In this document: positions 3,823 through 50,983 of the stretch, in pieces
Layout of the letters: each line of letters begins with the position of its first letter
Position numbering within the stretch: position 1 is the stretch's first letter
Translations under genes and position numbers: made by a program
The notes under the pieces: model-generated
The model's database searches: none
What the model saw: the letters and a program-made list of their open reading frames with translations, nothing else
What the model was told of the DNA's origin: nothing
Assembly: GCA_951406725.2 (NCBI GenBank)
Contig: OX597819.1
Coordinates: 39,866,001-39,930,000, forward strand
Reading direction: 5' to 3'
DNA length: 64,000 bases
DNA from: Octopus vulgaris
Lineage: Eukaryota

Positions 3823-4530
3823 TATAAAAATATGGTAAAGTAAAAGAATTCACTTTACCACACACCGAACTTTTCCGAAATAGCAGCCAAAAACTTGGCT
3901 ATTTCTTCAACTGCAAATAAAAGTCTCCAGACAATGTATACTCAGAAAAATAACTCACATAGGAATAAGGGAAAAACAATGAAAGATCACATCCATATAC
4001 GATACCCGAGGATAGTCTGTTTCTGGATTTGTGGGTAAAACGCCACTTTTCCTTCATCAGCTCAGAGATTTCTTTTGATTTAGATTTGAAAATACTAAGA
4101 ATCAAACATACCCGTCCGATATCTGTAACATCGGACAAACTATGCCAGACATCCAGTACTAGCGAATCCAAAAAAACGAATGAGATCTATTATTCTCCCT
4201 GTCCGCCCACGTGAGTCATAGAGCATTCCATTTCTACAGAGGTAAAAACTGCAGTTTAAATTCTTGGAGAGAAAGCATTATATTGTTATGAGAAAATGGG
4301 GGTCGAATCAATTAATTATTAATAAATTCGACCAAGCAGTATTCGGTATGTAAAGACCATTTACGGTATATTTGAATTCCTATGTGAGTTATTTTTCTGA
4401 GTATACATTGTCTGGAGACTTTTATTTGCAGTTGAAGAAATAGCCAAGTTTTTGGCTGCTATTTCGGAAAAGTTCGGTGTGTGGTAAAGTGAATTCTTTT
4501 ACTTTACCATATTTTTATAAATTAATACTA
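3823..4530 (+). mobile_element. Short PLE remnant: inverted pLTR with degenerate HHR, GIY-YIG C-terminal relic and 3' repeat
   Basis: Inverted repeat 3823-3966/4375-4519; the plus-strand relic KILRIKHTRP..SDKLCQ...NEIYYSPC resembles a PLE endonuclease C-terminus; bounded by (TA)n. Confidence 0.55.
4008..4063 (-). ncRNA. Degenerate type-I hammerhead ribozyme
   Basis: gag CTGATGA agga..gtgg..ccac..tcca GAAAC agact ATC ctc; stem III mismatched. Confidence 0.45.
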
Positions 4531-4574
4531 TATATATATATATATATATATATATATATATATATATATATATA

Positions 4575-4968
4575 CTAGCAGTATCGCCCGGCGTTGCTCG
4601 GGTTTGTAAGGGAAATAATTATATAAGCATTTTTAGAGATGTAAAGTATAATAGCCATCTCAATATGGCTAACCACAAAGGGGGAGGGTGTTACTGTAGC
4701 TTTTTACGTTCTGAGATTTAATAATAAATTTTAGAGAGTTACTTCCCTTATATATGTCAAAAATGGATTAAAAATGGGAAAAATTGATGGTAATTTTTTT
4801 TTTAAATCGTAGACTCATTGTAGACGCGCGCTAATACCCAGACGGTCTCGATATGAATCACGACTATAAGATACCCGGTTTTGGTTAAACTGCATCGCAA
4901 AATGTGGGAGTAGTTAGGAATCTAAATCGTAGGAGACAGACACACAACCTCACTTTTATATATAAAGA
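4575..4968 (-). mobile_element. Non-autonomous Helitron-like element
   Basis: 5' TCTTTATATATAAAAG and 3' CCCGAGCAACGCCGGGCGATACTGCTAG; near-identical inverted copy at 7802-8196. Confidence 0.75.
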
Positions 4969-5138
4969 TTTCCTCTATTTACATAATATTGAGGTCTCTT
5001 TCTTTCTTTTGTTATCTTACTGTTTTTACCAATATACATATATATATATATATATATATAAATATATATATTTTGGTCCAGAGATGTACTTGCATAGCAA
5101 GTGACTTGATCTGAGATCGTGTGCTGGAACGAAAACAG

Positions 5139-5397
5139 TTGCAGCGTTGAAGGTGTTTATAAGCCATTTAAGAAACACACAAAAATCGTTAGATTCACTT
5201 CAACATTTAAATTTAATTTGTCAAAATATTTTCGTCGCTTTGAGACCGCGACCTGTTAGCACGATATTTTTGTCAGTAAACAGGTCGCGGTCTCAAAGCG
5301 AGGAAAATATTTTGGCAAATTAAATTTAAATGTTGAAGTGAATCTAACGGTTTTTGTGTATTTCTTAAATGGCTTACAAACACCTTCCACGCTGCAA
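5139..5397. repeat. Local hairpin (~120-bp arms)
   Basis: 5139-5256 is the reverse complement of 5279-5397. Confidence 0.8.
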
Positions 5398-5719
5398 GAT
5401 ATATATATACACACATATATATATATATATGTATGTATGTATGTATGTATGTATGTGTGTATATGTGTATGCATGTATGTGTGTGTGTGTGCGTGTCTGT
5501 GCTTGTGATTGTCCTCCACCACTGCTTGACAACGAATGTTGGTTTGTTTACATCCCTGTCACCTAGTGGTTTGACAAAGGAAACAGATAGAATAAGTACA
5601 ATGCTTACAAAAATAAAACTGGAGTTGATTCATTAAACTATAATTCTTCAAGGCATTGCCCCAGCATGGCCACAGACCAATGGCTGGAAAAAGCAGAAGA
5701 AAGGCATGAGAAAGCTTGA

Positions 5720-6012
5720 GTTTACATGAGAAGGCCTAACAGACCTGGTAGAAACAGCAGCCAAATCTCCCTCAAATCACACCTTACTGTCTTATGTATG
5801 TATATATATATATATGAGCCAATGAGGGGGACCTCTACATGGTAGCTAGACCTGGTAGAAATAGCAGCCAAATTTCCCCCAAATCACACCTTACTGTCTT
5901 ATCTATGTATATATGTATGTATGAGCCTATGAGGGAGACCCCTACATGGCAGCTAGACATGGTAGAAATAGCAGCCAAATCTCCCTCAAATCACACCTTA
6001 CTGTCTTATGTA
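5720..6012 (+). repeat. ~107-bp tandem repeat, 3 copies
   Basis: AGAC(C/A)TGGTAGAAA(C/T)AGCAGCCAAAT...CACACCTTACTGTCTTAT recurs at ~5741, 5848 and 5955. Confidence 0.85.
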
Positions 6013-6058
6013 TGTATATATATATATATATATACAAGCCACTACGGTTATTTAATGT

Positions 6059-7072
6059 CAAGTCTTCCTCAAATCACTCTCGCTATTTACTCTCTTCCAA
6101 GAACATTTTCACTCACTCTTATCTCTTAGCTTGCCATACATTTTACTCATGTATCTATCAGCGTGATAGACAGAAACAAATATTACATCGCCATCTGCCA
6201 TCGCATTCTATTGTCTACCTGTCAACACACACACAGTGAATTACTTTCATTTTATTCGTTGCACACTGTGTGTGTGCGTGTGTGTGCGTGTGCGTGTGCG
6301 TGTGGTGTAAACCACATTAAGAAAAGCATTTGACATACACACCAGAATGTGAGTTTTCTGTAAATTTTGCTTAATTGGAGTTTAAATTTTAAAAACTGGA
6401 CCTGGCATGACCCGATGCATTCTACTCTTAAAAATGCTAGGTAAATTGTAATTGAAGAAATCCTATATTGTAGATTTCTATAACTGACAAAGGGAGGCAG
6501 ATAAAATCTGCCTTTTATAATAAGACGTAAACGCACATAGACGTAAACGCACACAAACATACAAACACACACACACACCACGTATAAACCGAATATTTGT
6601 GTGTGTGTATATATATATATATATATATATATATATATATATATATATATATATATATATATATATATATATATCTTATTATAAAAGGCAGACTTTATCT
6701 GCCTCCCTTTGGGAGTTATACAAATCTACAATATAGGATTTCTTCAATTACAATTTACCTAACAGTTTTAAGAGTACAATGCATCGCGTCATGCCAGGTC
6801 CAGTTTTTAAAATTTAAACTCCAATTAAACAAAATTTACAGAAAACTCACATTCTGGTGTGTGTGTCAAATGCTTTTCTTAGTCTGGTTTACACCACACG
6901 CAAACGCACACACACAGTGGGCAACGAATAAAATGAAAGTAAATGTAATATTTGTTTGTGTCTATCACGCTGATAGATACATGAGTAAAATGTATGGGAA
7001 GCTAACAGATAACAGTGAGTGAAAATGTTCTTGGAAGAGAGTAAATTAGCGACAGTGATTTGAGGAAGACTA
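6059..7072. repeat. Head-to-head inverted pair of a Helitron-like 5' end
   Basis: 6059-6525 is the reverse complement of 6674-7072, with scattered mismatches and one deletion; the copy starts TCTTATTATAAAAGGCAG. Confidence 0.75.
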
Positions 7073-49223: not shown

Positions 49224-49421
49224 AGTAGTAGTAGTAGTAGTAGTAGTAGTAGTAGTAGTAGTAGTAGTAGTAGTAGTAGTAGTAGTAGTAGTAGTAGTGG
49301 TGGTGGTAGTGGTGGTGGTGGTGGTGGTAGTAGTAGTAGTAGTAGTAGTGGTGGTGGTGGTGGTGGTAGTAGTAGTAGTAGTAGTAGTAGTAGTAGTAGT
49401 AGTAGTAGTAGTAGTAGTAGT
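49224..49421. repeat. (TAG)n/(TGG)n trinucleotide expansion within the PLE linker
   Basis: Direct reading of the sequence. Confidence 0.9.
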
Positions 49422-49789
49422 AACAGCCGTACTCCAACCTTCCTCGGAAGCGGGGATATTCGCATCCTGGTTTGTGCTAGTTATAGTGCTATGGTTATGA
49501 GCGTAGTCTATGTTATCATGTTCGACGCTAGTGTTTTCGCTGTTATTGGCCTATGTTATGATTATATATATTTAAGTAGTAGGAATTTTGAGTACGCTTA
49601 TTGGATGAGGTAACAATAGATTCTATGTTGGGCGGAGAGGAGTAAGATAATTTCAGAGTAGATCTGTTGAAGATTGAATGGCACTTATGGTGACGCGGGA
49701 AAAGGTTTTAGCTAATCTCTTAACATTTAAAGCGAATGTGGTGGGGATGAACCAGAGAATCGATCTCCCCCGTTTTTATTAGGCAATGT

Positions 49790-50094
49790 CACCGTGACCG
49801 TGACCGACCAGTCTATCAGATGCTGCTACACATCGCTGGTCACAATGCGCTTCGCATTGTTTTAGCCTTCAAATGACGCCACCCCGCTGGCTAAGCGAGC
49901 AGACCAACAGGGGAAAGAGAGAAAGTTGTGGCGAAAGAGTAAAGGCAGGGATCGCCACCACCCCCTGCCGGAGCCTCGTGGAGCTATAGGTGTTTTCGCT
50001 CAATAAACACTCACAACGCCCGGTTTGGGAATCGAAACCGCGATCCTACGACCGCGAGTCCGCTGTCCCAACCACTGGGCCATTACGCCTCCAC
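49790..50094 (-). mobile_element. SINE family C with 12-bp TSD
   Basis: TSD ATTAGGCAATGT at 49778-49789 and 50095-50106; tRNA-like head. Confidence 0.85.
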
Positions 50095-50400
50095 ATTAGG
50101 CAATGTAGGGGAAGTATAATCTGTAGTATTTGTTAGAGGAAAGTTGCAGGATTCAATGTAGTTTATCTGTTTGAATTTCGACCGAGTGTTATACGGGTGA
50201 GCGCAGGACGGACGAGAACATTTCATTCGAGGTCCTTCTATGTTTCTAGCGTGGGTTTTGGTTTTTCTATCTAAATTGGGAGGGTTAATGTGTCTTTTAG
50301 TGGGGCATGTCTCCACGGGCTGAGTTCAGAGATGTGTTTTTTAAGCCTAGTGTTTGCTATTAATTTCATTTGCTAGGAGAAGTCGCTAGCGGCTTGTTAT

Positions 50401-50575
50401 GTTCTCATTAATCTAGCCGCTAGATTAGTATTGTTTTGTTCTCATTAATCTAGCCGCTAGATTAGTATTGTTTTGTTCTCATTAATCTAGCCGCTAGATT
50501 AGTATTGTTTTGTTCTCATTAATCTAGCCGCTAGATTAGTATTGTTTTGATCTCATTATTCTAGCTGCTAGCGGC
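50401..50575. repeat. 37-bp tandem repeat, 4 copies plus a partial, each with an internal hairpin
   Basis: GTTCTCATTAATCTAGCCGCTAGATTAGTATTGTTTT at 50401, 50438, 50475 and 50512. Confidence 0.9.
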
Positions 50576-50803
50576 TGGTTGTAGTATTGAAGATTTCTTC
50601 CGTGGCTGAAAGATCCGATATCCGGATAGATATGCCTTTGGTTATACTATCGAAGGCAGATTTATGGTGATTAGAATCTATGTTAATGTATCTGAGTAAT
50701 GATTAGGTTCATGGTAGGGTGAGATTCCATGGTATGTCGGTTAATGGTATGTGAAATTCCACTGCGAATTTCCTTGTCTAGAACTTTCATATATATTCAC
50801 CTT

Positions 50804-50879
50804 GTCTCTGATGACGGAATAGCCAGTGTACAGACATGCTAGCCTATCACTTGAGATATCCCAGAAACAGCTGTAAGAC
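50804..50879 (+). ncRNA. Type-I hammerhead ribozyme
   Basis: gtct CTGATGA cgga...tccca GAAAC agct GTA^ agac. Confidence 0.75.
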
Positions 50880-50983
50880 TTTAAATTAACCTTACCCTAA
50901 TTAAATAATTATAAATGACTTGAGATGCTTGTCCTGCCTTGGTTTTTGATGTCCTTTGTAGCTAATATAACTATATATTTATA

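Follow-up and report, generated by a model that had tools for sequence, protein, structure and literature searches.

The window analysed here is a 64-kb stretch of DNA from Octopus vulgaris (assembly GCA_951406725.2, contig OX597819.1, positions 39,866,001 to 39,930,000), which has 36% G+C and is rich in microsatellites. It contains several insertions in which a hammerhead ribozyme motif is associated with an inverted copy of the 3' region of the same element, and we consider these insertions very probably to be fold-backs of Penelope-like elements (PLEs). Five of them, E1 to E5, had been recognised in a first-pass annotation made from the sequence; the additional locus E6, with the copies E6A and E6B (36394-37840), was absent from that list, which was thus incomplete. 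Inverted arms were identified by self-BLAST and pairwise alignment of the window. An Rfam scan of the window gave 290 matches, the best 150 of which included no hammerhead, being microRNA models on microsatellites with scores below the gathering score. As the scan was uninformative, custom hammerhead descriptors were used.

Hammerhead-bearing fold-backs in the window

The elements and their motifs are as follows.

E1, 3827..4528, minus strand: 5'-truncated PLE-type 3' end (4375->3827), of which the last 140 nt are repeated in inverted orientation at 4376-4515, with a further ~13 nt; flanked by (TA)n on either side
E1 hammerhead, type I, 4011..4060, minus strand: located in the spacer alone (coordinates from core to cleavage site), with an imperfect stem III
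E2, 8744..9149, minus strand: perfect 173-bp fold-back with a 2-nt loop; ~66-nt one-sided extension at the left; (TA)n on both sides
E2 hammerhead, left arm, 8915..8949, minus strand: AATT insert
E2 hammerhead, right arm, 9018..9052, plus strand: AATT insert
E3, 21488..25627, minus strand: 5'-truncated PLE classed with the Hydra clade (24468->21488), its 3' region being present a second time in inverted orientation (1.16 kb, 24469-25627); one-sided extension of ~109 nt at the left; (TA)n on both sides
E3 open frame, 23133..24468, minus strand: region following the reverse transcriptase (RT), 179-aa linker, CxCx5C motif, and GIY-YIG endonuclease with CxxC..E and N..CxH, lacking the CCHH cysteines
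E3 hammerhead, sense copy, 21638..21716, minus strand: long stem II, AATT insert, downstream of the stop codon
E3 hammerhead, inverted arm, 25514..25592, plus strand: descriptor match
E4, 47143..47609, minus strand: older copy with a ~97-nt one-sided extension
E4 hammerhead, left, 47305->47272, minus strand: insert ATGT
E4 hammerhead, right, 47542-47575, plus strand: insert ATAT, C3->U
E5, 48801..50975, minus strand: decayed remnant classed with the Hydra clade, interrupted by an insert resembling a short interspersed nuclear element (SINE) and by tandem repeats; sense 3' end lost beside a mariner-like remnant
E5 protein remnants, minus strand: RT-thumb region 50696-50571, linker 49725-49570 and endonuclease 49133-48870, decayed homologues of the E3 protein
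E5 hammerhead, 50808..50875, plus strand: AGCT insert, antisense to the open reading frame (ORF)
E6A, 36394..36962, plus strand: 354-nt hammerhead repeat present as ~1.4 tandem units, to which an inverted 3' copy is linked via a 4-nt microhomology; hammerhead 36761-36794
E6B, 37235..37840, minus strand: second, opposite copy of the E6A fold-back unit; hammerhead 37437->37404

The arms of E1 (3827-3966 and 4376-4515) and of E2 (8810-8982 and 8985-9157, the right arm entering the TA tract) are identical at 140/140 and 173/173 positions, with spacers of 409 and 2 nt. In E3 (21597-22776 and 24469-25633), where two parts were compared and a low-complexity block was omitted, 923 of 929 aligned positions agree and the spacer is 1692 nt, while the E4 arms (47240-47329 and 47518-47607) are identical at 78/90 positions (87%) with a spacer of 188 nt. 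The spacers of 2 nt, 1.7 kb and ~190 nt given previously for E2, E3 and E4 are therefore accurate. The order of tail, pseudo-long terminal repeat (pLTR) with hammerhead, spacer and inverted pLTR, which had been proposed for E1-E4 and in part for E5, is found in E2, E3 and E4 but not in E1, where neither descriptor detected a hammerhead in the inverted arm and the single motif lies in the spacer. Likewise, the one-sided extra 3' sequence sits on the direct copy in E2-E4 (~66-110 nt), as had been described, but in E1 it amounts to ~9-13 nt on the inverted arm and is absent from the direct copy. In E1-E4 the element 3' ends point outward, with a head-to-head junction between two differently truncated copies, and this asymmetry, together with hammerhead-bearing arms that flank a retroelement ORF, excludes a reading of E1-E4 as DNA transposons or miniature inverted-repeat transposable elements (MITEs).

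E5 carries its only hammerhead on the plus strand, against a minus-strand ORF remnant, and no partner arm was found in the self-comparison of the window. The earlier statement that only the antisense motif survives is thus in agreement with our data, and this motif presumably represents the remaining inverted arm. The left boundary previously set at 48890 has to be moved, since the element reaches at least to 48870 by tblastn and to ~48801 by eye. Mariner-like transposase remnants occur at 45908-46976 and at ~47990-48800, and the second of these adjoins the broken left end of E5.

The two copies of E6 agree at 574/590 positions, with one 36-nt gap and the same inversion junction. They lie 272 nt apart between TA tracts, which suggests local duplication or re-mobilisation of a fold-back unit. 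The 354-nt unit resembles the ~300-nt tandem monomers described for retrozymes in PMC7229834. A non-LTR (long terminal repeat) retrozyme identity was rejected, as this calls for at least two tandem units each with a hammerhead, and E6 has ~1.4 units and one hammerhead per copy; E6 likewise falls short of the two-unit criterion for an active retrozyme in bioRxiv 10.64898/2026.07.22.740005.

An inverted 3' copy thus accompanies each of the seven hammerhead-bearing insertions in the window, for E5 as judged from polarity alone, and the view that integration "routinely" gives fold-backs can be kept at that scope, 7/7, with the same reservation for E5. The absence of mutual nucleotide similarity was also confirmed, as none of the 28 pairs among eight element 3' regions exceeded all 60 shuffles (top z 2.3).

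Such structures could in principle arise from chimeric palindromic reads, and PLE tandem and inverted structures are known to trouble assemblies (PMC8557442). The complete identity of the E1 and E2 arms would be in line with an assembly or library artefact. The arms do differ in E3, E4 and E6, no mirrored flanks were found beyond the TA tracts at the five loci tested, the sequences there being unrelated where a folded-back read would mirror them, and a simple read fold-back gives neither one-sided tails nor long unique spacers. Judged on these arguments from within the window, an artefact is highly improbable.

The two descriptors gave 10 motifs, one each in E1 and E5 and two each in E2, E3, E4 and E6. 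At a score of at least 8 the first descriptor had 7 matches, compared to a mean of 0.25 per shuffle (20 shuffles), and at a score of at least 9 the second had 8 matches compared to 0 in 50 shuffles. In E1-E5 every motif faces outward to the element end, at a distance of 34-184 nt. The stem III inserts are AATT (4), ATAT (3), ATGT, AGCT and one imperfect insert of 5 nt. The description as type I hammerheads with mostly 4-nt, usually palindromic inserts therefore applies to those with AATT, ATAT and AGCT, and has to be qualified for the left motif of E4 (ATGT) and for E1, where the 5-nt insert is non-palindromic and position 15.2-16.2 is unpaired. Candidates at 13488-13453 and 32501-32595 had a score of 7, at which shuffles yield 1.5 matches per window, and were dropped; those seen by eye near 21370, 42080 and 5110 failed both descriptors. 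In predicted folds the arms of E1, E2 and E4 pair fully (~-277 kcal/mol for E2), and such pairing would bury the hammerhead motifs of E2 and E4. Judging from PMC4209133, the inverted copy would not be able to supply the second sense motif for dimeric cleavage.

Coding remnants of E3 and E5

The E3 frame lies in the spacer and ends at 23133 on the minus strand, with the endonuclease at its C-terminal end. For its last 151 residues, 3596 relatives were found at E<=1e-3, the long ones among them having RT (YRDD) upstream. The closest, with 75% identity over 99 residues, is an entry under the name Octopus sinensis, and another top match comes from Argonauta. The Octopus sinensis record closest to the E3 endonuclease (P0001) is annotated as 'myelin gene regulatory factor-like A' and is apparently a mis-annotated retrotransposon fragment. 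The CxCx5C linker motif is present in E3, in E5 and in 112/150 relatives, and cysteines (CxxC) inside the GIY-YIG were found neither in E3 nor in any of the 150 relatives. CxxC ahead of the conserved E (142/150 relatives) and CxH after the conserved N (119/150) are both present in E3, while E5 is too decayed for these distal endonuclease motifs. The two longest relatives have RWR/RWK and DKT/DKS motifs in the N-terminal RT region, which is truncated in the window copies; these lack the RT core as well. E3 and E5 are unrelated in DNA and have 31-39% protein identity over two short stretches, and in E5 RT-thumb homology lies upstream of the endonuclease, so that the GIY-YIG is C-terminal to the RT as in the Hydra clade.

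The features shared by the Hydra clade in PMC8557442 are a C-terminal GIY-YIG, the CxCx5C linker, absence of CCHH, a type I hammerhead near the 3' end and a (TA)n target. By these motif criteria E3 and E5 classify as Hydra-clade PLE remnants. The Neptune clade shares with E3 the C-terminal endonuclease, a cysteine linker and a proposed microsatellite bias (PMC8557442), but is excluded for both elements by the lack of CCHH cysteines between GIY and YIG and by CxCx5C instead of Cx2-5CxxC. The Naiad clade, with its N-terminal endonuclease and no canonical hammerhead, is excluded by the C-terminal endonuclease and the hammerheads. Compared to the listed Hydra families, E3 differs in the ~1.4 kb between stop codon and hammerhead and in its Asn-rich linker. 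The hammerhead of Hydra-1_Obim differs by eye from those in the window, whose elements appear to be other families.

Pfam gave no match on the E3 frame and, on ten of its relatives, sub-threshold matches only (GIY-YIG in two, RVT_1 in one); a search of longer proteins with the whole frame and with residues 305-455 gave no matches. The E3 linker (frame 23591-24090, minus strand) comprises 179 aa with 36% Asn, in frame ahead of the endonuclease, and is similar to the Asn-rich inserts in Penelope elements of rotifers; at the matching position in E5 there is a triplet repeat of Thr/Asn type. Among listed sequencing runs, 20 of 24 rows (11 studies) hold part of E3, with a best share of 0.45, and two runs recorded as RNA hold 0.05 of it, which is no evidence of expression.

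As E1, E2, E4 and E6 carry no coding remnant, their clade can only be inferred. Hammerhead, TA flanks and geometry fit a PLE and fix no specific clade, and these elements probably belong to the Hydra clade.

(TA)n flanks and neighbouring inversions

Tracts of (TA)>=5 number 125 and cover 5.7% of the window. With arm boundaries fixed by self-alignment alone, each of E1-E4 has one boundary no more than 7 nt from such a tract, compared to a background of 3.4% of other positions within 10 nt. When ends are instead read from the sequence, those within 10 nt of a TA tract are 7/8 in E1-E4, 4/4 in E6 and 0/2 in E5, and both ends of E3 are 1 nt from (TA)n. The ends of E5, which is decayed and has lost one end, are 238 and 866 nt from a (TA)>=5 tract, with none within 200 nt. 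The observation that most elements are bounded by (TA)n is therefore valid for E1-E4 and not for E5. The short distances, set against the background, support the proposed targeting to (TA)n, which is also the published target of 26/27 Hydra families, including Hydra-1_Obim from Octopus bimaculoides (PMC8557442 Files S1/S2). In Adineta vaga, Penelope insertions lie in non-microsatellite DNA and have discernible target-site duplications (Arkhipova et al. 2013, PMC3846280), whereas (TA)n here hides any duplication.

The commonest SINE-like repeat has ~15 copies (e.g. 9299-9697 and 43946-44447), its 5' end is often TA-adjacent and an internal (TA)n tract splits it; 5/11 intact 5' ends, one of them the query, lie within 10 nt of (TA)n, which speaks against TA specificity. 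In a second SINE-like family this was the case for 0/5 5' ends. The null expectation, that inversion and TA adjacency are no higher here than for other repeats, is thus rejected only in part, in view of the 5/11 and of the hammerhead-less inverted pairs at 94-99% identity described below.

In E1 and E6 there is an overlap between the shorter 3' end and an internal TATA, in E2 and E3 this end is 1-3 nt from one, and in E4 it is not near one; chance overlap would be expected at ~5-7% of positions, and the distance window was chosen after seeing the data. At locus L002 the overlap with TATA is 2 nt only. The overlap at short 3' ends is suggestive, and a later deletion between TATA and tract would look alike. 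A four-sequence alignment gave 18 related loci on metagenome contigs, mostly too short to show inverted arms. Five have a hammerhead downstream of the ORF, six a TA tract downstream and four both (30-53 nt apart). One of them, L009 (1-702), from another host, contains within its coding region an inverted copy of 259 nt in head-to-head arrangement, with a 2-nt junction overlap by eye.

Inverted pairs also occur in the window without hammerheads, which indicates that local inverted duplication takes place in the absence of this motif. The pair 4575-5311/7459-8196 is identical at 745/751 positions; its ~740-nt arms (99% identity) are TA-bounded and enclose a 107-nt tandem repeat and a second pair, 6061-6525/6674-7071, with 94-95% identity. 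The outer ends of both pairs (4575-8196 and 6061-7071) we take to be Helitron-like. At 5072-5397 lies a hammerhead-less fold-back (5139-5397) whose arms are ~90% identical and enclose a 21-nt loop; it is extended on one side by 67 nt and has TA-rich flanks, a geometry like that of E2. MITE-like inverted pairs are found at 29110-29957, 31395-31613 and 45203-45401.

These observations bear on the possibility that the fold-backs result from inversion after insertion, by a general local process such as template switching or repair at fragile (TA)n that would affect any repeat. The two hammerhead-less pairs at 4575-8196 and 6061-7071 and the E6A/E6B pair would be in accordance with such a process, as would the finding that the hammerhead loci do not account for ~39% of the complex sequence with a near-perfect inverted partner within 2 kb. 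It is, however, difficult to reconcile with a mirror that stops at the element end in E1-E4 and leaves the flanks unmirrored, with a polarity that is always 3'-outward, with 7/7 hammerhead insertions being affected while the only partners of SINE-like copies are dispersed ones with 68-92% identity, and with the recurrence of the structure in other hosts and in published consensus sequences. We regard this explanation as improbable.

Elsewhere in the window, a 398-aa open frame at 38243-39439 with a zinc knuckle (Pfam zf-CCHC, E 1.6e-5) is likely ORF1 of a non-LTR retrotransposon, and a (TTAGGG)n-like tract at 41524-41587 lies within a repeat that recurs at 53940-54281, the flanking parts being 95-97% identical.

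Formation and possible significance of the fold-backs

The architecture is the published PLE insertion architecture, here in the TA-targeting Hydra clade, and is as such already known. An inverted 5'-truncated copy and a one-sided tail are typical of PLEs (Craig et al. 2021, PMC8557442, including the Fig. 2 legend), and Penelope-13_HM of the Hydra clade has a 5'-truncated inverted copy at its 5' end with a hammerhead on each strand (PMC8557442 supplement). The one-sided extensions of ~10-110 nt in the window can be compared to the 30-40 bp quoted for PLEs (PMC8557442). Palindromic helix III loops are described for PLE hammerheads, and opposite-strand hammerhead pairs 100-700 bp apart are reported in Schistosoma (Cervera and De la Pena 2014, PMC4209133). 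The first-pass annotation was thus supported in assigning the elements to PLEs folded back at integration, by the endonuclease remnants of E3 and E5, the arm polarity and the hammerheads, but its view of fold-backs as a feature of this genome has to give way to that of a general PLE property (PMC8557442, PMC3846280, PMC4209133). The two mechanisms it put forward have both been anticipated, in PMC3846280 for self-priming and in PMC11167929 for a cut and extension on both strands, and the choice between two-end priming and snap-back is left open by Craig et al. (PMC8557442).

We favour 5'-truncated PLE insertion by two-end priming, with a probability of roughly 0.55. The element endonuclease would cleave a (TA)n tract on both strands, and reverse transcription would be primed separately at the two ends. 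Two incomplete complementary DNAs (cDNAs) would grow inward and presumably be linked through short microhomology where they are truncated; the spacer would then correspond to the excess length of the longer cDNA, and the one-sided tail to the offset between two RT start sites. For the protein of Poseidon PAc from Anolis, cleavage of both target strands followed by their extension has been demonstrated (Frangieh et al. 2024, PMC11167929), and such activity would let two-end priming explain arms, spacer and tail together. The tail of PAc is defined by two internal sites, located downstream of the hammerhead, at which RT starts (PMC11167929), and two such sites on the RNA would account for a one-sided tail here, with the limitation that PAc belongs to a different PLE clade from E3 and E5 (PMC11167929). 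Two-end priming is further supported by arms that end at different 3' points, either of which may be the longer.

Several observations weigh against this account. The perfect E2 hairpin with its 2-nt loop needs two independent truncations at one place, for which snap-back is simpler, and copying from a single cDNA would account just as well for the perfect arm identity of E1 and E2. The cases in which the inverted arm is longer are weak, as the extra 9-13 nt of E1 could be decayed target and the extra sequence of E6 could come from the upstream tandem unit. PAc starts reverse transcription at a site not homologous to the target (PMC11167929), in contrast to the TATA overlap seen here. Only 1/18 loci from other hosts, most of them short contigs, has a long inverted copy, and E1, E2, E4 and E6 gave no tblastn or hidden Markov model match to a coding remnant.

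In the snap-back alternative, a single cDNA primed at a (TA)n nick would stop, fold back by microhomology or a small hairpin and be copied toward its own start, after which the copy would be connected to the opposite end of the target, in many cases at an internal TATA. Besides the 2-nt loop and 173/173 identity of E2 and the 140/140 of E1, this is in line with the shorter inverted arm of E2-E4, which is expected if copying stops early, and with the self-priming proposed from junction palindromes (PMC3846280). The 4-nt microhomology at the E6 junction is compatible with both routes. On the other hand, snap-back does not readily explain the extra 3' sequence on the E1 inverted arm that is absent from the direct copy, it requires long-range annealing for loops of at least 1.7 kb (E3, E5), and extension of both strands has been demonstrated in vitro for PAc (PMC11167929). 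We therefore hold snap-back to be possible and less probable than two-end priming. The many young junctions in this window provide material for choosing between the two, and the occurrence within 64 kb of at least five hammerhead families that are unrelated at the nucleotide level indicates that the clade is more diverse in its host than the single listed octopus family.

Within the window, 3675 bases lie in non-simple 40-mers that have a near-perfect inverted partner within 2 kb, and 2252 of these (61%) are in E1, E2, E3 and E6. The fold-backs would give hairpin RNA only if transcribed. The octopus is among the two highest for double-stranded RNA (dsRNA) potential and hyper-editing, and Penelope is heavily edited in lizard (Porath et al. 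2017, PMC5625713) and among the most edited repeats in X. tropicalis (PMC10636886). Our literature search, whose limited coverage makes it weak evidence of absence, found no paper linking Penelope or octopus editing to inverted pLTRs. One may speculate that in octopods nearly every Hydra-clade insertion is a fold-back, its short end determined by where (TA)n anneals with an internal TATA, and that long perfect dsRNA derives mainly from fold-backs, some of which are re-mobilised whole as in E6A/E6B, and which thereby help to explain the hyper-editing in octopus and the Penelope editing in lizard and frog; we consider this broad proposal rather unlikely as it stands. The 61% share of inverted sequence would nevertheless matter for ADAR biology if it holds genome-wide and the loci are transcribed.

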